Of a stretch of DNA of 64,000 bases, positions 39,631 through 64,000 are shown one piece after another. Within the stretch, counting starts at the first letter, position 1. Every line of letters starts with the position of its first letter. The stretch lies in sequence record NC_012638.1. One strand, 5' to 3'. Source of the DNA: Escherichia phage RB14. Under the pieces are notes generated by a model that searched no databases, was not told the DNA's origin, and was given only the letters and a program-made list of their open reading frames with translations. The position numbers and the translations under genes are program-made.

Positions 39631-40101
39631 TTAATCATGTTTCCACACCCCATCGGTATTTGACCAAAGTCGCTGATTATCTGATCCTCGCCACAGCTTT
39701 TTGGTCGGAAGATTTTTCTCATACTTCCCATCAATAATAACATCAACATATTTAAGCATTTCTAGTTGTTTAATATCTTCAAACTTATATCCTGTCCACA
39801 ACCAAATGCTTTTATTGGGATAAAGATTTTTAATAGTTTGAACCACAGAGTGAATCACGTCTCTGTTATCAGGATAAAGAGGGTCTCCTCCAGTTATAGT
39901 TAATCCTTCTATATAATCATTATTCAAACATTCAATTAATTGTTCTAATGTTTCACCAGTGAATGGAATACCATTTCTAGCATTCCATGTTGATTTATTA
40001 TAACACCCTTCGCATTTATGCAAACATCCAGTAACAAAAAGAACGGTCCTGCACCCAGGACCATTAACAAAATCGCAAGGATAAAATCTATCATAATTCA
40101 T
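39631..40101 (-). CDS. nrdG: anaerobic ribonucleotide reductase activase NrdG (radical SAM), 156 aa
   Basis: cysteine cluster CLHKCEGC; 156 aa as T4. Confidence 0.9.
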   Translation of the reverse strand: MNYDRFYPCDFVNGPGCRTVLFVTGCLHKCEGCYNKSTWNARNGIPFTGETLEQLIECLNNDYIEGLTITGGDPLYPDNRDVIHSVVQTIKNLYPNKSIWLWTGYKFEDIKQLEMLKYVDVIIDGKYEKNLPTKKLWRGSDNQRLWSNTDGVWKHD

Positions 40102-41915
40102 TGGTGTTTAACCCTATGCATGATTTCTTTATTTTTACCGAGATTAAATCCGCGTTCGTTCGGATTTCCCAAATAACCACATGTTCTTCTTATTGTATTC
40201 ATCTTTTTAGGATCAGTTTCTCCACAAATAGAACAAACAAATCCGTTTTCAGTAGGAGTCATTTCATGGGTACTTCCACATGTAAAACATTTATCTACTG
40301 GCATATTAACACCAAAATAATCTAAATGTTGTGCGGCATAATCCCATACAGCCTCAAGACCTTTTAAGTTATTTTTCATATCAGGAAGTTCAACATAAGA
40401 AATGTGACCACCTGTCGCAATGAAATGATATGGCGCTTCACGAGAAATCTTTTCAAACGGAGTAACATTTTCTTCTACTGAAACATGGAAACTGTTAGTG
40501 TACCAGCCTTTATCAGTAACATCCTTTACACTTCCATATTTTTCTGTATCAAGTTTACAGAAGCGATAGCAAAGGTTTTCAGCAGGAGTAGAATACAAAC
40601 TAAAAGCAAACCCAGTTCTTTCAGTCCACTGTTTAAGATGAGCATTCATTTTAGTTAAAATTTCTCGTCCAATATCACGACCGACAAGAATATTCAATTC
40701 GTGAATACCAATGTATCCTAAAGACACTGAACTTCTACCGTTTTTAAATAACTCAATTATGTCGTCATCAGGTTTAAGACGAACCCCGAATGCACCTTCT
40801 TGGTAAAGAATAGGAGCAACAGTCGCTTTAACTCCTTTTAAGGAACTAATTCTGCACATCAAAGCTTCAAAACATAAATCCATTCGTTCATTGAACAATT
40901 CGATAAATTTCTGTTCATTGAACTGTGTTCCAATATAAGAATCTAATGCGATACGAGGAAGATTCAGTGTTACAACACCGAGATTATTACGTCCATCAAG
41001 AATTTCATTGCCAGTCGAATCTTTCCATACGCTCAAGAAACTACGACAACCCATTGGAGAAACAGGAATAGATGAGCCGGTGATAGCTTTATTGTTCTTA
41101 GCTGAAATAATATCAGGATACATCCTTTTGCTTGCGCACTCTAGAGCAAGCTGTTTAATATCATAGTTCGGATCGTCTTTATAAAGATTAACACCTTCTT
41201 CAACGAACATAACAAGCTTAGGGAAAATAGGAGTTATCCCATCACGACCAAGACCTTTAATACGATTTTTCAGAATTGCTTTCTGAATCATTCGTTCAGT
41301 CCAGTCAGTTCCCGTACCAAATGTAATTGTTACAAAAGGCGTTTGTCCGTTTGAACTAAAGAGAGTATTTACTTCATATTCATAAGCTTGGAATGCATCG
41401 TATACATCTTTTTCTGTTTTAGATTGAGCATAATTCAACGCATCAGCGATTTGCCATTTTTCTGCATCCTCAATATGTTTTGCATAGGTGCGTTTAACAT
41501 AAGGAGAAAGTACTTTATCTACATTAGCAAAAGTCGTTCCGCCGTATTGATGGGAAGCAACCTGTGCAGTAATTTGTGCCATAATTGCAGTAGCAACACC
41601 GATTGATTTAGGAGTTTCAATCTGTGCATTACCAAGCTTAAATCCGTTCTCAAGCATTCCTTTTAAATCTACTAAACAACAATTAGTAAATGGAAGAGCA
41701 GGGGAATAATCAATATCATGGAAATGAATAATTCCGCTTTCATGCGCTTTCATAATAAAAGACGGGACCATATTTTTGGCAATGTGTTTAGACACAATAC
41801 CAGCCATAAGGTCCCGTTGAGTTGGAAAAACACGAGAATCTTTATTAGCATTCTCGTTTAAAAGGTCTTTATTAGTTTTATGAATCAATCCTTCAATTTC
41901 TTTTTCAATTGTCAT
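40098..41915 (-). CDS. nrdD: anaerobic ribonucleoside-triphosphate reductase NrdD, 605 aa, uninterrupted
   Basis: C-terminal glycyl-radical motif RRTCGYLG; a single continuous ORF with no intron. Confidence 0.95.
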   Translation of the reverse strand: MTIEKEIEGLIHKTNKDLLNENANKDSRVFPTQRDLMAGIVSKHIAKNMVPSFIMKAHESGIIHFHDIDYSPALPFTNCCLVDLKGMLENGFKLGNAQIETPKSIGVATAIMAQITAQVASHQYGGTTFANVDKVLSPYVKRTYAKHIEDAEKWQIADALNYAQSKTEKDVYDAFQAYEYEVNTLFSSNGQTPFVTITFGTGTDWTERMIQKAILKNRIKGLGRDGITPIFPKLVMFVEEGVNLYKDDPNYDIKQLALECASKRMYPDIISAKNNKAITGSSIPVSPMGCRSFLSVWKDSTGNEILDGRNNLGVVTLNLPRIALDSYIGTQFNEQKFIELFNERMDLCFEALMCRISSLKGVKATVAPILYQEGAFGVRLKPDDDIIELFKNGRSSVSLGYIGIHELNILVGRDIGREILTKMNAHLKQWTERTGFAFSLYSTPAENLCYRFCKLDTEKYGSVKDVTDKGWYTNSFHVSVEENVTPFEKISREAPYHFIATGGHISYVELPDMKNNLKGLEAVWDYAAQHLDYFGVNMPVDKCFTCGSTHEMTPTENGFVCSICGETDPKKMNTIRRTCGYLGNPNERGFNLGKNKEIMHRVKHQ

Positions 41916-55848: not shown

Positions 55849-56235
55849 CTATTCGAGGGAAAGAAGATATTTACTTTGGTAAAACATTCCAGTAATATCA
55901 TCTATCGTGCTTTGGATGGCTGGAGGCATTTCTTTATAAATGCTGTTAGATTGGTCTAGTATGCGATCAATCATTTTAATTGTGTCGGTAGGAAGTTTAC
56001 TGGCATCTGGAATTGAAGGCGTGTATTTTCTACCAGAATACCCCAAATATTGCTCACCAAATTTATCAATCAAATCTGGCAACTCGGAGAAAATAAAATC
56101 GTATGCTTTGTGTCTAGCATAACTTTTAGTTTCAAAATGTGCAGAATGAAAATAAGCTTGTGCAGCCATTAATAAACCTAAGTATTCATCTGCCTTTGAA
56201 GGTTTTCCACTTTGTGAAAAGTCGCTGAATTTCAT
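55849..56235 (-). CDS. protein downstream of rI (rI.1 position), 128 aa
   Basis: ORF table; position adjacent to rI. Confidence 0.55.
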
Positions 56236-56525
56236 TCAGTCTCCAATTTAATGTTCATAATTCTAGCGTATGATTGTGCCATCTCCGCGCCTCGTTCTAT
56301 ACATTCAAAATCAGAAGAGCACGGGTCATTTTTATAGGTCGTTCTCATAAAACTATAGAATTGTTCAGACGATTCTACGCTTTTATTTTCAAAAAGTGTA
56401 TAAACGTGCCTAATACCAGATTCCATAAATTTATCAAAATGAGGATCGACATTCGCTTCAATCGATGGAGATAAAACAAATGACAATCCTAGCATGGCAA
56501 AAAGTGCCGTTGCTTTTAAGGCCAT
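56232..56525 (-). CDS. rI: lysis-inhibition regulator RI, 97 aa
   Basis: signal-anchor N-terminus and sequence match T4 RI as I recall. Confidence 0.9.
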   Translation of the reverse strand: MALKATALFAMLGLSFVLSPSIEANVDPHFDKFMESGIRHVYTLFENKSVESSEQFYSFMRTTYKNDPCSSDFECIERGAEMAQSYARIMNIKLETE

Positions 56526-56537
56526 AAAGGCCTCCTA

Positions 56538-56750
56538 TCATTTTTGTCCTGTATTTACTTTATGCCGATGCACGGCCTTAACTTTATCAAGGTATTTTTC
56601 AAAATTTCGCAATCTAGTATAGTCTGCCGGAGATTGGTTGAGCGATACTTCTCGACGCAAAGCTGAAATGATATTTCCAACTTCCCTACGAATTTCATCT
56701 AATTGAAGCACAGTAAGATTGCGAAGTTGCTTTTCAGTTAATTGTAGCAT
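56538..56750 (-). CDS. protein upstream of rI (rI.-1 position), 70 aa
   Basis: ORF table. Confidence 0.5.
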
Positions 56751-56792
56751 ATATACCCCTTTAGTTAGATAAACCTATTTATAACTTTTGCA

Positions 56793-57374
56793 CTAACCGA
56801 GCTTTTTAGTTAATTCATTCCAATGTTTTCTACACAAAGAAACATAAATTTCATCACCAATACAGATTTGATTACCTTCTTTAACTGGTGTTCCATCTTC
56901 CATTAATCGAGCTGTCATAATCGCTTTTTTACCGCAATGACAAACTGCTTTTAGTTCAATAAGTTTATCTGCAATCGCTAAAAGTTCTTTAGAACCTTCA
57001 AACAATTTTCCAGCGAAATCAGTCCTTAATCCATAAGCCATAACAGGAACATTATATGTATCAACAATTCGGCTCAATTGATGCACTTGTTCAGTTTTTA
57101 AAAACTGAGCTTCATCTACAAATACGCAATGAATATCTTTTTGTGCTTCAGCCCATTTATAGAACTCGAAAATATCCATATCATCTGTAATAATATTCGC
57201 TTCCTGCTTAATTCCAATGCGAGAAACAACTTCACAGACAGAATCGCGAGTATCAATAGCAGGCTTAAGAACTAATACACTCATTCCACGTTCTTTATAA
57301 TTATGTGCAGCAGTCAAAAGAGAAGCAGATTTTCCAGCATTCATTGCTGCATAAGTAAAAATTAAACTCGCCAT
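56793..57374 (-). CDS. tk: thymidine kinase, 193 aa
   Basis: Walker A MNAGKS and zinc-ribbon CHCGKK; 193 aa as T4. Confidence 0.9.
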   Translation of the reverse strand: MASLIFTYAAMNAGKSASLLTAAHNYKERGMSVLVLKPAIDTRDSVCEVVSRIGIKQEANIITDDMDIFEFYKWAEAQKDIHCVFVDEAQFLKTEQVHQLSRIVDTYNVPVMAYGLRTDFAGKLFEGSKELLAIADKLIELKAVCHCGKKAIMTARLMEDGTPVKEGNQICIGDEIYVSLCRKHWNELTKKLG

Positions 57375-57375
57375 T

Positions 57376-57564
57376 TTAGTCCTTAGTTAAATTTTCTAAA
57401 TATGTTTCTAAATCATTTTCAGCTTTATCGATAGATTTTACTAATTCGTAATATGTTTCGGCATCTCCATAATCAGAAGATAATTCAAAAGACAAATCCT
57501 TTTCTAAACTAATAATTTCACCAACTAAAAATAATATTTCGTTCTTTTGTTCGCGAGTAATCAT
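57376..57564 (-). CDS. small helical protein family member, 62 aa
   Basis: N-terminus MITREQKNEILFLV. Confidence 0.5.
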   Translation of the reverse strand: MITREQKNEILFLVGEIISLEKDLSFELSSDYGDAETYYELVKSIDKAENDLETYLENLTKD

Positions 57565-57746
57565 AAAGAATTTATATAATCAATGAGTTCTTGTTCTTTA
57601 TTATCGAATTCTTTAGAAAGTTCTTCGTATTCATTTGCATTAAAAGGACCGCATTCATCACAAACTTTTTCCAATTCACTGTTTTTATCCATAACTTCGT
57701 GGATAAGAGAAAAGAGTTTGTCTTTTTGTTCTTTGCTTAAACTCAT
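57561..57746 (-). CDS. small helical protein family member, 61 aa
   Basis: N-terminus MSLSKEQKDKLFSLI. Confidence 0.5.
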   Translation of the reverse strand: MSLSKEQKDKLFSLIHEVMDKNSELEKVCDECGPFNANEYEELSKEFDNKEQELIDYINSL

Positions 57747-57916
57747 ATATTAATTTCCAAAAGTTTTAAAATAATTCGCTTTTGCTTAAATATTTCCACA
57801 GTTAAATGATCAGTATCTTTTTGACCAATTCCAATGGCAAAACCTTTATTAACAGCGAGTTCAATTAAATTATCAAGTTCACGTAACACTTCATATTGTA
57901 ACTCAGAACTATTCAT
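57743..57916 (-). CDS. small protein, 57 aa (not in ORF table)
   Basis: my translation MNSSELQYEVLRELDNLIELAVNKGF...; ATGA overlaps at both ends. Confidence 0.4.
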   Translation of the reverse strand: MNSSELQYEVLRELDNLIELAVNKGFAIGIGQKDTDHLTVEIFKQKRIILKLLEINI

Positions 57917-58125
57917 TTCGGTTTACCTTCTTTAACGAAATCTGGATAAGGATAAAATCCCGAATAAAATCCTTCACCTTTATGATTGATACATCCTTTA
58001 TTAGAACAATAGCACCAATAATCGAAATCACAAGCCATTTCATCGTTGCATAAAGCAAAAACAACCGGCCATTTACACTTTTCACAGTGGGCATTTTTAA
58101 GAATACTAGTTTGGCTCATAACCAT
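57913..58125 (-). CDS. Cys-rich small protein, 70 aa
   Basis: about ten cysteines including CEKCKW and CYCSNKGC. Confidence 0.5.
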   Translation of the reverse strand: MVMSQTSILKNAHCEKCKWPVVFALCNDEMACDFDYWCYCSNKGCINHKGEGFYSGFYPYPDFVKEGKPK

Positions 58126-58343
58126 GTCACCTTTAAGCAGTATTCTTCTACATGCTGTTTACGACCTTTCTTATCAATAAAGGTATATTCAACGAATGTT
58201 CCAATGTAGTCTTTATCTACATCGTGTGGACTATTAATTGGACATTTAGTACGGCAAATGCGTTCCCATTGACGAATAATTACTGCCTTATTCTTTGGGT
58301 CATACGGATGTGGATAATGTATATTCATAATAATGGTTCCCAA
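58116..58343 (-). CDS. hypothetical protein, 70-75 aa
   Basis: ORF table. Confidence 0.45.
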   Translation of the reverse strand: MGTIIMNIHYPHPYDPKNKAVIIRQWERICRTKCPINSPHDVDKDYIGTFVEYTFIDKKGRKQHVEEYCLKVTWL

Positions 58344-58792
58344 TCAACAATCACAATTTCTAATTTAGAGGAATACGTATCTAAAATATCTTCAATAATA
58401 TCCCAGTTCCCTTTACCTATGCCTGCACCAATCCTAGGCATATAGATTGTAGGTTTAATTAGTTTATTTTCACCAAACTCATTTAATTCTAACATACAAT
58501 TCATTAAAGCGGAATACTCAAAATTTGGCCCTGGTTGAAATTGAGTATAAAGGTTGAAGCAATACGCTTTATGAGTCCTAAAGTATTTTTCATAGACTGA
58601 ATAAGAACCGAGTTTAGTTACATCACCCCATTCAGTCTGTAATTTATCAGCTTCCAAAATTTTAGGGAAAGCTTTGGTTAATTGACCCGCTACGCCTGAA
58701 CCCATAGTATGAAAACAATTGCATCCATGCGCAATATTTTTACCTTCAGCGAAAAGGGCGACAATATCGCCCTTGATATATTTTACAATCAT
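58325..58792 (-). CDS. macrodomain protein of TARG1/OARD1 type (putative ADP-ribose hydrolase), 155 aa
   Basis: motifs YIKGDI, AHGCNCFHTMGSGVAGQL and MPRIGAGIGKGNW line up with human TARG1 (YVKGDLF, AHCISEDCRMGAGIAV, MPRIGCGLDRLQW) as I recall it. Confidence 0.65.
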   Translation of the reverse strand: MIVKYIKGDIVALFAEGKNIAHGCNCFHTMGSGVAGQLTKAFPKILEADKLQTEWGDVTKLGSYSVYEKYFRTHKAYCFNLYTQFQPGPNFEYSALMNCMLELNEFGENKLIKPTIYMPRIGAGIGKGNWDIIEDILDTYSSKLEIVIVDWEPLL

Positions 58793-59136
58793 CTAGTACT
58801 CAATCCTCGATTATAAGAATCTACCAAACGGTCAACCATTGAATGACAAGCGGCTTTATCTTTCTCCTCCGCAACTGAACATTCTAAAGTATTCCACTTT
58901 TTAGCATATCGTTTTAACAATGTATAGTTTTTGTATCTGCTTGATTTATCCCTTTCTCCGTCTTTATATGCATATATTAATTTCTGTGCAAATTCAGCTT
59001 GACATGCTTTATTTTTCCCACAATAATCTGCCGCAGTGCGGTTTACATATTCTCTAATTTCAGTATATGATGTATCTGCTGACGCAGAAGCAGAAAATGA
59101 AATTAATCCTATACATAAAACCAAAATTTTAGTCAT
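58789..59136 (-). CDS. secreted/periplasmic protein, 115 aa
   Basis: N-terminal signal peptide MTKILVLCIGLISFSASASA; four cysteines in the mature part. Confidence 0.55.
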   Translation of the reverse strand: MTKILVLCIGLISFSASASADTSYTEIREYVNRTAADYCGKNKACQAEFAQKLIYAYKDGERDKSSRYKNYTLLKRYAKKWNTLECSVAEEKDKAACHSMVDRLVDSYNRGLSTR

Positions 59137-59674
59137 TTACTATTTCCAAAAGTTTATTATTTTTAAGGTAATTAGCCTTTTCTAGGACTTCAGAAGCATA
59201 TTTAGAACCTGCTTTAACATTCCATCCCGAATTATAAGAGGATATTGCTTTTCTTATATCTCCCTTATGTATATTTAACCAATAAGAAAGTTCAATGTAC
59301 GCCCAGGAAGCTGAATTGGACCGTTTATTCAACATTCTTTTTATTTCAGCATCGGTCATATTATAACCAAGTTCCTTAACTCTTGCTCGCATAGTAGGCA
59401 AATAATTTTGGAACATTCCGTAGGCGTGATGCTTTGGTTTAGATTTTAAATTAACTCCGCCAGAGCTTTCTTGCCATAAAATAGCAGCCATTATATGACC
59501 TAATCCGCTCTTGTGGATATTTTTGTGTGTTTTATATTTTCCATCCTTAGAAAATTGTTCCCCGAATTGATACGCGTAACGCATGTTATCGAGTTGGACA
59601 TTACTGAAAGTATGCTCGGAGCTATGTGCCATCATTGAAATGGCCAATAGACCAGCGAGTAGTGCTTTTCTCAT
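59129..59674 (-). CDS. secreted lytic transglycosylase-like (SLT domain) protein, 181 aa
   Basis: signal peptide plus SLT catalytic motif AAILWQESSGG. Confidence 0.6.
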   Translation of the reverse strand: MRKALLAGLLAISMMAHSSEHTFSNVQLDNMRYAYQFGEQFSKDGKYKTHKNIHKSGLGHIMAAILWQESSGGVNLKSKPKHHAYGMFQNYLPTMRARVKELGYNMTDAEIKRMLNKRSNSASWAYIELSYWLNIHKGDIRKAISSYNSGWNVKAGSKYASEVLEKANYLKNNKLLEIVND

Positions 59675-59681
59675 GCTTACC

Positions 59682-60143
59682 TCATTGAGTTTTAATTACT
59701 GCTTTAGAAGCCTTTCCTGGTAAACGACGACTGTTGATAATTGCCATCCTACATTGAAGTGACGGGTCTTTGAACTTCTCATTAGGTTTACAAACCGTAA
59801 ATCCAAGCCAAAGATTTCCATCTGTGATTTCTAAACGTCCAGGACGATATTCAACCCCATCAATAAAATCCTCGTCAATGTCAGGACGCGGAGGCATACT
59901 CAGAAATTCATTAACTTCTAAAACATGGTCTTTTATTTTATGGAATAATTCAAAAACGTATGTCTCATCAATCTCCCGTTGAATTGCGCGATCAAGAAGA
60001 TGCTGAGAATATTTTAGATGAAACGATGAGACCCCTGCTGCTTTTGATGCCTCACGAATCTCATTGTTAATTTGACGAAACTCCGACTCAAAGTGACGAC
60101 GAAGCTTATTTCGACGGATAAAAACTTCTGTATTGATAGTCAT
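59682..60143 (-). CDS. regB: RegB endoribonuclease, 153 aa
   Basis: 153 aa as T4 RegB; position between the tk and e regions. Confidence 0.85.
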   Translation of the reverse strand: MTINTEVFIRRNKLRRHFESEFRQINNEIREASKAAGVSSFHLKYSQHLLDRAIQREIDETYVFELFHKIKDHVLEVNEFLSMPPRPDIDEDFIDGVEYRPGRLEITDGNLWLGFTVCKPNEKFKDPSLQCRMAIINSRRLPGKASKAVIKTQ

Positions 60144-60202
60144 GTTATTCTCCTCTTAACTGATAGAAAAATTATACCACAGTCAAGAGGAAAAGTAAAC
60201 AG

Positions 60203-60523
60203 TTATTCTTTAAATCTAATCAATTTATTCATAGACTTTGAAACTTCTGCACGAACCTCATGTAAGTTTTTAAGCTGTTCAAGACGCTGCTCATAGTAAG
60301 CAATTTCATCTTCTTCGAGACAGTCCTGTGAATCTTCTTTAAGATAACGTGCATAGTCCTGAAAAGCTTTACGGACTACTTCCTGGAAGTCATCAAGACT
60401 TTGAATTTTCTTAGGAGCGGCAGATACACGACGAGGTGCAGTATAATACTCATAACCAAACCCTGCACTTAATTGAGCCATTAGTATTTTTCCTCTGGTT
60501 GGAACACTGCACGACAAGCCCAC
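60203..60523 (-). CDS. hypothetical helical protein, 92-106 aa
   Basis: ORF table; probable start at the internal Met ([13 protein letters not shown]...). Confidence 0.5.
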
Positions 60524-60783
60524 ATACTGGCTTCTTTGAGTTTCGTTTTAGCAATAGTTAACTGATCGAGGCTTTCAGCATAATTCTTCGCGAGTTCATC
60601 ATCTTCACAGCTATCGAATGCTTCCCAGAATTCATCGTATAAAGCATCAAAGATAAGTCCTAAACGAACTTCAGCGTCTTTGATAGCATTCACTTTACCG
60701 ATTTTCTCTTCAGTATGCGGCTTATAACCTTTAATGTCTTCAATCATATTTGACTTCCTCACCAGTACATAAATCATATTCAA
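60481..60783 (-). CDS. hypothetical protein, up to 100 aa
   Basis: ORF table; start uncertain. Confidence 0.45.
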
Positions 60784-60961
60784 CTAAACGAATAGGTTCA
60801 TGAATGCCATATCCTTGAACAGAAATTTCTGTCGTAGGATAAATTCCATCAATATCACCCATATTCCAGGCTTCATTAAATTGCTGTTCGCCTGAATTAC
60901 TAAACCACTCGGCGAAAGCATTTAGCACATCTTTAGAACCTTCAATAATTATCTTTGCCAT
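60740..60961 (-). CDS. hypothetical protein, 73 aa
   Basis: ORF table. Confidence 0.45.
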   Translation of the reverse strand: MAKIIIEGSKDVLNAFAEWFSNSGEQQFNEAWNMGDIDGIYPTTEISVQGYGIHEPIRLVEYDLCTGEEVKYD

Positions 60962-61323
60962 TACAAACTCTCAGTAAAGGTACGAGCGATAACGTCGCGC
61001 TGCTGTTCCGGAGTCAGAGAGTTAAAGCGAACTGCATAACCGGATACACGGATGGTCAGCTGCGGATATTTTTCCGGATGCTTAACTGCATCTTCCAGAG
61101 TTTCACGACGCAGAACGTTAACGTTCAGGTGTTGACCACCTTCAATTTTAACTGTAGGTTGTTGCTCAATTTCAATTTCACGGGCATGCAAACCATAGAA
61201 AATTTCTGGGTCTACAAAAGAGTCCTCTTTAAAGGTTTTAGAGACAATAATTCGTGCTTGAATATCATCTTCAAAATAAATAGTACCTTTATGTGTGCCT
61301 TCAAGAATTTGATATGCTTTCAT
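60961..61323 (-). CDS. autonomous glycyl-radical cofactor (GrcA/YfiD-like), 120 aa
   Basis: C-terminal 60-65 aa including the RVSGYAVRF glycyl-radical motif identical to E. coli GrcA as I recall; the 3' 190 bp are GC-rich with host-like codons. Confidence 0.75.
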
Positions 61324-61330
61324 ATAAACC

Positions 61331-61660
61331 TCAATTAGAAAATAAATTTATCCAAGATTGTTCTTTAATTAAAAATGGCTCAGAATCATATGCCATTAAA
61401 CTTTGGGTGATTAGTCCTTTAAAAGGTCCATCAATAAATTCCATGGTAAAATATGGAATTTTATTCATTAGCCGTGCATTAGGAGCAGTACACAAAACTC
61501 TGCATCCTTTGAATACGCCTTTTTGTAATTTGTATTGCTTGGGATAAAATTCGCTTAAAATGTTGTTATTTGCCAAAATTTCAAAATGATTTACCAATTT
61601 ATTTTTAATAGTTTTTGGCGAAAAATAGAGATATTCGAAAAGCTGCGTGTCTGTCATCAT
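61331..61660 (-). CDS. hypothetical protein, 109 aa, translationally coupled to the upstream P-loop gene
   Basis: ATGATG start overlaps the upstream TGA stop. Confidence 0.5.
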
Positions 61661-62244
61661 TGCATTCCGATTACGAAAAACTGCGGACGAGTAATACCAC
61701 CAATGCAACATTTACTATTACAGCAGTAGTGTACAGTGTCAATATGGACGCTATAAATCTTATCCATATCAGGAGATTTGACAGGCTCATCAATTATATA
61801 CAAAATTCGCGAAAGCGATAAACCTCTGAACTTGCTTCCTTTATTACCAATAAAACTGCGCACAGAATCAGTAAATAAACGAAAACGTATATCATCATTA
61901 GAATAACGCGAAAATTCCTTTTTAATGTTATTTGCAGAAATTTTAGCGTAAGCTGAAGTATTAGAAAGAACAATAACTGTTCCGCCATCATACAGCCAAT
62001 TAGCGGCAAAGTTAGTCACAGCAATTGATTTACCGGATTGACGTCCACCATCTATACGAAGTGTGCAGTACTGTTTAAGTAATTCTTCAAATGGCGGGAT
62101 ATATTCGTTTTTACAAATTTCTTCTACTCTAGCATCAGAATGGTGTGTAAAAGCATTCATCAGGGATAGATAAGGACCAGTTAAAAATGTTCTCATTTTA
62201 TTCTCTCTAAATTTGGGCCATTCCATGGCGCATGAATTGTCCAT
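61657..62244 (-). CDS. small P-loop NTPase, about 179-195 aa
   Basis: Walker A GGRQSGKS and Walker B-like ILYIIDEP. Confidence 0.5.
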   Translation of the reverse strand: MDNSCAMEWPKFRENKMRTFLTGPYLSLMNAFTHHSDARVEEICKNEYIPPFEELLKQYCTLRIDGGRQSGKSIAVTNFAANWLYDGGTVIVLSNTSAYAKISANNIKKEFSRYSNDDIRFRLFTDSVRSFIGNKGSKFRGLSLSRILYIIDEPVKSPDMDKIYSVHIDTVHYCCNSKCCIGGITRPQFFVIGMQ

Positions 62245-62337
62245 TTCTGTATTTACCCATTACCGCACTCAGGCTCGACCTTATTACAGGTTGGCGGGAA
62301 TCCCTCATAGAATCATGAGGTCCAGGTTGTTCCCATA

Positions 62338-62811
62338 TTATTTGAACGATTTAACGTACTGAATAGAACCTTTACTATTCACAAAGGCAATTTTACCATT
62401 TTTGTTATACATGGTAGCAGTACGTTGATAGCCATAAGTTTGTTTACCAGATTGATAACCAACTAATGCAAAATTATCTTCACCCATTTTATTCTGTTTA
62501 GCACGAATGCGTTCATGGCCATGTGCCATAAGAACCTTAGCATCACCTGTTGCAATGGATCGACGAGTTTTTTCATCTTCAACTGTATTAACAAAGTCGT
62601 CAAATGAATCAAATTTAGCATGAGATTTATTATACAGTTTTCCATCTACTGCATAATTATATCCTTGTACATCCATCTCAACTTCTGTACCATCATCCAA
62701 TACAGCAGTGATTTTCTGTCCTTTTTTAAATTTCAAAAGATCAGTAAAAGATTCAGCAATAATTTGAGAATTAATAGCTGCTTCAGTAATAAATTCTTGA
62801 TATGTTTTCAT
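62338..62811 (-). CDS. capsid internal protein with capsid-targeting sequence, 157 aa
   Basis: N-terminus MKTYQEFITEAA matches the T4 internal-protein targeting sequence; locus next to e as for ipII/ipIII. Confidence 0.65.
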   Translation of the reverse strand: MKTYQEFITEAAINSQIIAESFTDLLKFKKGQKITAVLDDGTEVEMDVQGYNYAVDGKLYNKSHAKFDSFDDFVNTVEDEKTRRSIATGDAKVLMAHGHERIRAKQNKMGEDNFALVGYQSGKQTYGYQRTATMYNKNGKIAFVNSKGSIQYVKSFK

Positions 62812-62905
62812 GTGTATCCTTTAAATGTAAATATTTTAATTAATAATTTATCTCTTCAAATAACTGTGAATATACTATCACAATTCTAGGAGAAAGTAAA
62901 TAACT

Positions 62906-63436
<531 letters not shown>

Positions 63437-63892
63437 TTAAAAGAGGCTGTTCATTATTCGGTAAAGTGAAGGACCCATCACATATTGCCACTGAGTACGA
63501 GGAATAAGAGCAAAAGCATCCATCTCTGGAATCATAACGCCATCTTTATTTTCAAAATAAGACTCGCAGCGGCAATTTCTAAACATCTCATGCTCTACTG
63601 GAATCGTATAGTAAAATAGCTGTAAGTCTTTATTACTAGAATATTTAAATACACCTAGGTCTTCTAGAAGGTCTGGATTATAATTGCTAAAGCCAGTCTC
63701 TTCTAAACATTCTCTTCGTGCTGCATCTAGCGCGCTTAAATCAGAATTTTCTACACGGCCCTTTGGAATATCCCAGCGATGGGCCATCATTCCAGGCTTA
63801 CGAGAACCGGTAACACGACCCATAAATAAATCTTTATCTTCTGTCATAAAGATAATACCAGCTGATAATGTTTTCATTTTAATTTCCTGCAT
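63437..63892 (-). CDS. nudE: Nudix hydrolase NudE, 151 aa
   Basis: Nudix box GRVENSDLSALDAARRECLEETGF; position upstream of e as T4 e.1. Confidence 0.8.
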   Translation of the reverse strand: MQEIKMKTLSAGIIFMTEDKDLFMGRVTGSRKPGMMAHRWDIPKGRVENSDLSALDAARRECLEETGFSNYNPDLLEDLGVFKYSSNKDLQLFYYTIPVEHEMFRNCRCESYFENKDGVMIPEMDAFALIPRTQWQYVMGPSLYRIMNSLF

Positions 63893-64000
63893 TCAGTGAT
63901 AAAGTTATTTAAATTTTGAGTATATTTCTTTTCATCAAAAATCTTTTGTTGTCTGCGTAAACGCCATGGCATTTCAATGAACGTATACCATATCCCAGAT
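63890..64000 (-). CDS. partial CDS (C-terminal 36 codons), continues beyond the window end
   Basis: open frame reaching position 64000 whose TGA overlaps the nudE start codon. Confidence 0.4.

Follow-up and report, generated by a model that had tools for sequence, protein, structure and literature searches.

Host grcA sequence in the glycyl-radical domain of vs.6 in T4-like phages: a case for repeated host-to-phage gene conversion

Phage T4 encodes a small protein, Vs.6 (Y06I), related to the E. coli cofactor GrcA (YfiD), an autonomous glycyl-radical 'spare part' for pyruvate formate-lyase (PFL). Once PFL activase has acted on it, T4 Y06I is able to reactivate PFL that oxygen has cleaved (Wagner et al. 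2001, as described in PMC8683613). In the passages of PMC8683613, PMC1524935 and PMC13450708 that treat it, vs.6/Y06I is presented as a protein-level relative of GrcA with a Pfam Gly_radical match, and as nothing further. We found no account in the open-access literature of a DNA-level host tract in vs.6 or of its recurrent overwriting; a mention in key older papers is possible. The gene and its biochemical role are already known, and what we add is evolutionary.

The best described parallel is that of psbA and psbD in cyanophages (Zeidner et al. 2005; Sullivan et al. 2006, PMC1484495). These too are auxiliary metabolic genes of T4-like phages with patchy G+C, in which some segments are nearer to host genes than to phage homologues, a pattern attributed to recombination between host and phage copies (PMC1484495). 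Unlike psbA, vs.6 displays a single host-like block with base-exact bounds, 100% identity to a named donor species and a clear host-to-phage direction; it belongs to a virulent coliphage that degrades host DNA, and the same segment appears to have been hit independently across phage genera with different hosts. The psbA signals, in contrast, are statistical, older and bidirectional.

Closer relatives are found in Karamvirus, Pseudotevenvirus, Krischvirus and the T5-like Tequintavirus and Epseptimavirus (PHROG 1209), whose GrcA-like genes share family, architecture and radical domain with vs.6 and, within the Straboviridae, its genomic neighbourhood as well. They differ from vs.6 in being free of any recent host tract: compared with the sampled host grcA genes, their 3' halves reach 73-87% identity and share no exact run longer than 38 bp, and the Karamvirus codons are AT-rich.

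The vs.6 gene and its product

The DNA analysed here, which we call the window, is a stretch of 64,000 nucleotides from a T4-like phage (Tequatrovirus); over positions 56000-64000 it shares 98% identity with Shigella phage SHBML-50-1 and with RB18. Gene order near the vs.6 orthologue is that of T4, regB-vs.3-vs.4-vs.5-vs.6-vs.7-vs.8 ... e-nudE. The parts of the locus are as follows.

60961..61323, minus strand: vs.6/Y06I orthologue, a 120-aa GrcA-like autonomous glycyl-radical cofactor with motif RVSGYAVRF (ORF, Pfam, TIGR04365, identity to T4, PDB 6owr)
60971..61145, minus strand: host-derived patch, 175 bp equal to E. coli grcA nt 200-374, codons 60-118, glycyl-radical domain (100% identity, GC)
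61146..61323, minus strand: phage-type 5' part, codons 1-59 and first base of codon 60 (AT-rich, GC3 ~19%, no E. coli DNA match)
60961..60970, minus strand: phage-type 3' tail, third base of codon 118, codons 119-120 and stop, ..G AGT TTG TAA (synonymous differences from grcA)
60740..60961, minus strand: downstream vs.5-like ORF, 73 aa (start codon overlaps the vs.6 stop, TAATG)
61331..61711, minus strand: upstream vs.7-like ORF, upstream limit of the locus (ORF, T4 gene order)

A Pfam search with the vs.5-like ORF gave no match. Its ribosome-binding region may lie within the unconverted 3' tail of vs.6, which varies among T4-type alleles (GAA/GAG, AGT/AGC, TTG/CTG/CTA). Promoters and terminators predicted around vs.6 were no more numerous than in shuffled sequence. 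The window departs from T4 at 61657-63400: between the vs.8-like ORF (61657..62244) and lysozyme e (62906..63400), T4 has denV, ipII and ipIII, whereas the window has a single ORF, 62338..62811 (Pfam DUF7412), with the N-terminus MKTYQEFITEA. At this T4-equivalent position denV is absent from the window.

The window protein is identical to T4 Vs.6 (NP_049730) at 117 of 120 residues (97.5%), in the same vs.7-vs.6-vs.5 context, and the T4 product bears the RefSeq name 'autonomous glycyl radical cofactor GrcA'. The first-pass annotation, made from the sequence alone, had noted that T4 carries a YfiD-like protein able to rescue oxygen-damaged PFL; this agrees with what the cited account says of Vs.6/Y06I. 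The differences from T4 are D20G, Q54P and R73H. The last falls inside the patch, where the window allele is nearer to E. coli than T4 is, the T4 patch carrying one non-synonymous change.

The GrcA/YfiD family corresponds to TIGR04365 and InterPro IPR011140. Vs.6 has the stand-alone GrcA architecture, that of a small protein (about 14 kDa in the family, 120 aa here) with little besides a C-terminal glycyl-radical domain, and Pfam PF01228 (Gly_radical) matches its residues 60-101 with 66.9 bits (cutoff 22.2). With TIGR04365 it scores 155.7 bits over residues 18-120, which places it outside the strict family (curated equivalog cutoff 170; E. coli GrcA 233.9), because its N-terminal half is diverged and shorter, by 7 aa, than that of GrcA. 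This half is nevertheless homologous to GrcA (35% identity over 40 aa, pairwise E=5e-6).

Which glycyl-radical enzyme would such a protein serve? The first-pass annotation had named NrdD as a possible partner, since the phage encodes its own. The window indeed holds NrdD (40098..41915, minus strand, 605 aa; matched by Pfam NRDD at 571 bits and by Gly_radical), together with the activase NrdG (39631..40101, minus strand, 156 aa). The NrdD C-terminus reads IRRTCGYLGNP, with the radical motif RRTCGYLG, and no such RxCGY-type motif occurs in Vs.6. Vs.6 instead has the PFL-type motif RVSGYAVRF, and its ~60 C-terminal residues are homologous to PflB. Its closest solved relative is E. coli GrcA (PDB 6owr, E=1e-41), followed by PflB (1h16) over residues 697-759 (E=6e-26); among its PDB sequence matches at E<=0.001 there are no NrdD chains. 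These comparisons lend no support to a role with NrdD and indicate a PFL-type spare part; the function itself rests on the experiment with T4 Y06I. In vivo, we infer, Vs.6 would be activated by the host PFL activase and take the place of the C-terminal radical domain lost when oxygen cleaves host pyruvate formate-lyase.

Bounds, donor and direction of the host-identical segment

The C-terminal 60 residues of Vs.6 (EGGQHLNV...TFTESL) are identical to E. coli GrcA, and just before them, at position -61, the phage has Ile where E. coli has Val; the first-pass annotation had read the last 60-65 residues as identical, at the lower end of which the actual figure lies. It had also expected near-100% DNA identity with a sharp breakpoint. 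By BLASTN, grcA of all 5426 complete E. coli genomes matched gene nt 179-363 at 98.4% identity. In a direct comparison the two genes agree without a mismatch over at most 175 bp (window 60971..61145, corresponding to gene nt 179-353 and grcA nt 200-374). Upstream of this run identity to grcA collapses to ~45-50%, the break falling at the Ile/Val codon that precedes EGGQHLNV. Downstream, the phage ends its reading frame with GAG AGT TTG and E. coli with GAA AGC CTG, three synonymous codon differences, and past the vs.6 stop codon there is no similarity to the grcA locus; the patch itself ends before the stop.

Composition marks out the same segment, as had been noticed on first reading. Patch GC is 49.1%, against a window mean of 34.4% (sd 4.0); in a sliding-window check, 11 of 63,826 windows of 175 bp reach the GC of the patch and all 11 overlap it, which makes it the most GC-rich 175-bp segment of the 64 kb. 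GC3 is 18.6% in the 5' part of vs.6 and 42.6% in the 3' part. When the whole 64-kb window was compared by megablast with the same E. coli genomes, the patch was the sole match, and no other host-derived tract was found. Within the window, host overwriting is specific to vs.6, because NrdD and NrdG have no DNA-level match to E. coli even though E. coli has homologues of both.

Protein conservation does not account for the 175-bp identity, which is far beyond chance. The window patch has no synonymous difference from E. coli grcA, whereas over the same codons E. coli differs from C. amalonaticus, K. pneumoniae and Salmonella with dS of 0.38, 0.59 and 1.11, respectively. Moreover, Citrobacter phage Maroon has a radical domain with all 60 residues as in E. 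coli, and Enterobacter phage YI837 one with all but the final residue (Leu to Ile); conservation of the protein is insufficient because their domain DNA is only 84-86% identical to E. coli, with dS of about 1.1-1.2. The patch is 74-86% identical to other phage genera and 100% identical over 175 bp to E. coli, so that the expected excess over phage homologues is plain. Vs.6 displays the marks of a mosaic gene: a host-like composition within a phage-like gene, a segment nearer to the host than to phage homologues, with discrete breakpoints, and separate events in different lineages with different donors (the Jiaodaviruses and two Klebsiella-group alleles, below).

Among candidate donors, E. coli proper is the closest, with 97.8% identity and the 175-bp run, ahead of cryptic Escherichia sp. 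(96.8%), Citrobacter (90%) and Salmonella (~84%). All 22 sites diagnostic of E. coli versus K. pneumoniae are E. coli-like in the window patch. In host grcA, compared across Escherichia, Citrobacter, Salmonella and Klebsiella, the 5' half has diverged in step with the 3' half, and GC3 is similar in both; in the phage gene GC3 leaps from 19% to 43%. We conclude that the sequence passed from host to phage. The parallel divergence of the host halves and their host-like GC3 led us to reject the reverse transfer, from phage to host. We also rejected pflB as the donor: grcA is the best match in every genome, and 11 of the 60 residues are different in the PflB domain.

The first-pass annotation had described a chimeric gene in which a phage-type N-terminus was fused to a recently host-acquired C-terminus. 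The recent E. coli grcA copy joined to a phage-type 5' half stands. The fusion does not, and the copy stops short of the stop codon: because the N-terminal half of Vs.6 is itself a diverged GrcA homologue, the patch appears to have overwritten in place part of an old, diverged, full-length phage grcA homologue, not to have been joined to an unrelated N-terminus.

A side observation concerns one metagenomic grcA gene. Contig OHAV01008836.1 carries an E. coli-type grcA, of which we examined the last 186 nt: nt ~3-104 of the domain are identical to a pflB-type sequence (L247) and nt 70-186 to E. coli grcA, which puts the PflB residues MNREMLLDAMEN into GrcA. This is either a conversion between the bacterial paralogues grcA and pflB or an assembly chimera formed through 35 bp common to both genes.

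Distribution among phages of different hosts

The chimera is not confined to this phage. The patch is present at >=94% identity in ~645 records of the phage collection (Tequatrovirus and Mosigvirus), T4 included, and the T4-type 5' half at >=87% in ~647; the patch is therefore essentially fixed in the two genera. Between them the patch is conserved at 98-99% identity, against 88-89% for the 5' half and 67-73% for the flanking 300 bp (Fisher p=1.8e-4), and dS is 0.05-0.07 in the patch versus 0.39-0.49 in the 5' half. The contrast between patch and 5' half indicates that the patch is younger than the Tequatrovirus/Mosigvirus split, or has been homogenised since. The 5' part of the window gene is likewise 88-89% identical to Mosigvirus, and 72-75% identical to Jiaodavirus and Karamvirus.

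Variation within these phages is suggestive of repeated conversion. Three phage variants coincide with E. coli polymorphisms, against ~0.7 expected by a rough estimate; these rare variants, common to a T4-type phage and E. coli alleles, are C42 (L176/L123), A105 (L177/L113) and T18 (L178/L111). Each tail codon is also found in the E. coli state in some phage: GAA in T4, AGC in L177 and CTG in L175. T4-type phages as a whole are E. coli-like at 21-22 of the 22 diagnostic sites. Tequatroviruses isolated on Yersinia, Salmonella and Citrobacter still carry the E. coli patch, so the patch follows the phage lineage as much as the isolation host.

A divergent allele was seen in the Tequatrovirus Escherichia phage vB_EcoM_Nami (L258:321-683), whose patch is 92.5% identical to E. 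coli grcA. Among its 12 differences are N-to-H and I-to-S changes at residues that are invariant elsewhere, and three fall on E. coli polymorphisms. The pattern stems either from a donor that was a divergent Escherichia or from errors in the sequence.

The Jiaodaviruses, which infect Klebsiella, have a vs.6 built as in T4, with GC3 of 22-24% in the 5' half and 57-59% in the 3' half. Their 3' halves share exact runs of 107 bp (VIPKPNUMC01) and 140 bp (IMG/VR contig L200) with a metagenomic grcA, L094, itself a 100% match to a K. pneumoniae record, and they are K. pneumoniae-like at 17 of the 22 diagnostic sites in the patch. Phage ValerieMcCarty02, on a near-identical Jiaodavirus backbone, instead shares an unbroken 164 bp with another donor allele, L097, and agrees with it at all 6 sites that tell L097 from L094. 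L097 is a Klebsiella-group allele whose identity over the locus is 92% with K. pneumoniae and 91% with K. aerogenes. Other Jiaodaviruses are mosaics of the L094 and L097 types. All this points to at least two Klebsiella donor alleles for the Jiaodavirus patches, in parallel to the E. coli case. These phages also share the T4 5' junction (ATT|GAAGG) and a phage-type 3' tail, ACAGAGGCACTATAATG, in which GAGG stands nine bases before the overlapping downstream start codon.

In the Enterobacter Karamviruses the 3' half is AT-rich (GC3 26-30%), and none of 160 host alleles exceeds 80% identity to it; they represent the unconverted state. No long exact run to sampled host grcA was found in the Pseudotevenvirus, Krischvirus or T5-like homologues. 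Two phages carry the Klebsiella-type residues LLDAVEH: Klebsiella phage Roth23 (L090), where they come without DNA-level identity to Klebsiella grcA, and Escherichia phage Phi1 (L091, Krischvirus), even though its host is E. coli. Matching to the host at the protein level is thus imperfect, and Roth23 and Phi1 may hold older, eroded tracts.

GrcA-like genes occur as well in a group of metagenomic phages on contigs of 33-154 kb (L192-L197 and L204). Within it, only L196 (IMGVR_UViG_3300008607_000007) agrees with a Haemophilus-type host allele (L136) over 56 bp without a mismatch, a stretch in which its relatives differ at 6-10 sites; its 3' part may be a third, shorter host-derived tract.

Origin of the patch and its meaning

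We propose that vs.6 is an old, full-length homologue of grcA whose 3' half, encoding the glycyl-radical domain, has repeatedly undergone gene conversion by host sequence, and we give this reading a probability of about 0.85. It builds on the identity, breakpoints, phage distribution, donor matching and direction observed above; from these we infer the recombination mechanism and the reason for the fixed boundaries. T4-type phages have very active homologous recombination, and fragments of host DNA are released during infection. Host DNA is degraded early in T4 infection, so exchange between host and phage must be rare. A diverged full-length grcA homologue would already have resided in the phage before any conversion. 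Diverged phage and host copies have exact runs of 17-38 bp in common, left by the invariant 60-aa radical domain, and these could seed a first exchange. The conversion tract would have replaced gene nt 179-353 with E. coli sequence and left the protein unchanged, so that selection would not remove converted alleles; once a first tract was in place, near-identity would make further exchange easy. Tracts must end within the homologous region, which would explain the common 5' boundary. At the other end, homology gives out at the stop codon, and the region from which translation of the next gene starts reaches into the final codons of vs.6, whose tail would therefore stay phage-type. The process would be recurrent and follow the host, bringing E. 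coli sequence into Tequatrovirus and Mosigvirus and Klebsiella sequences into the Jiaodaviruses.

Could the patch be older, or not real at all? A T-even ancestor might have acquired the gene or its 3' half once, long ago, with slow evolution under constraint ever since. The extreme protein-level conservation of the radical domain in all phage and host homologues and the identical 5' junction in all Tevenvirinae examined would fit such a history. Synonymous sites are not constrained, however: homologues with the same 60 residues stand at dS 1.1-1.2 to E. coli, yet the window patch shows no synonymous difference, where E. coli and Citrobacter, Klebsiella or Salmonella are separated by dS of 0.38-1.11. 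E. coli phages moreover match their own host at 21-22 of 22 diagnostic sites and Klebsiella phages at 17 of 22, and two Jiaodaviruses match two different donor alleles, all of which makes a single ancient acquisition very improbable. Still less credence is due to an artefact in which mis-assembly placed host reads or DNA in the phage genome and gave a false chimera. Phage preparations do contain host DNA, the patch is identical to it, and the metagenomic grcA/pflB chimera may be such a case; against this, the same patch and junctions recur in ~645 independently sequenced genomes, including T4 (NC_000866), and the patch is also in the 8,008-bp T4 GenBank record X04567, with the reading frame intact and the phage-type tail and overlapping downstream start preserved. 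On the strength of these ~645 genomes with the same junctions we rejected an assembly artefact.

Two further explanations are harder to set aside, although we regard both as unlikely. According to one, a single recent conversion from E. coli in one T-even lineage was followed by spread from phage to phage at co-infection, with no ongoing exchange with the host. T-evens recombine freely with one another, the patch is 98-99% identical across two genera where the adjoining sequence is 88-89% identical, and within Mosigvirus both halves are equally diverged (96.6% vs 97.3%). The rare variants common to phages and particular E. coli alleles do not fit with this, nor do 3' endpoints that vary codon by codon; with flanks at 67-73% between genera, the exchange would have to be confined to ~180 bp; and at least two donors are seen in Jiaodavirus, so repeated conversion does occur in vs.6. 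According to the other, selection maintains host-identical sequence, for an exact fit to PflA/PflB or for host-optimal codons in expression, and converted alleles sweep. It is also the stronger version of the wider view given below, that of continuing concerted evolution: converted alleles would be favoured through their match to host PflA/PflB or to host codon usage. The presence of the patch in ~645 of 647 T4-type genomes is in keeping with it, as is the distribution of residues, LLDAVEH in the Jiaodaviruses and in Roth23 (no genus on record) and LEDAVKH in E. coli and Citrobacter phages. Yet Karamvirus and T5-like domains are 6-12 aa from any host, so that unpatched or protein-divergent phages evidently persist, Tequatroviruses from Yersinia and Salmonella keep the E. 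coli type, and Krischvirus Phi1, an E. coli phage, has Klebsiella-type residues. Such a role for selection seems to us doubtful, at about the same level as spread between phages.

If repeated host-to-phage conversion is the right reading, does it continue today? We lean slightly towards a wider view, in which the 3' half of vs.6 would be in continuing concerted evolution with the grcA gene of the lineage's recent enterobacterial host. It would then form a self-renewing record of host history, and strictly lytic phages that degrade host DNA would still sample host chromosomes, through homologous recombination, at a measurable rate.

For annotation, the host-identical stretch in vs.6 is real and does not reflect contamination. 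The locus presents what appears to be an unusually clean, base-exact case of host-to-phage gene conversion in the best-studied family of virulent phages, repeated across genera with the sequences of their own hosts. If exchange is ongoing, the vs.6 patch may serve as a sequence marker of a phage lineage's recent host, and it would provide an experimental handle on the frequency with which lytic phages recombine with the host chromosome and on the phage functions needed for it.
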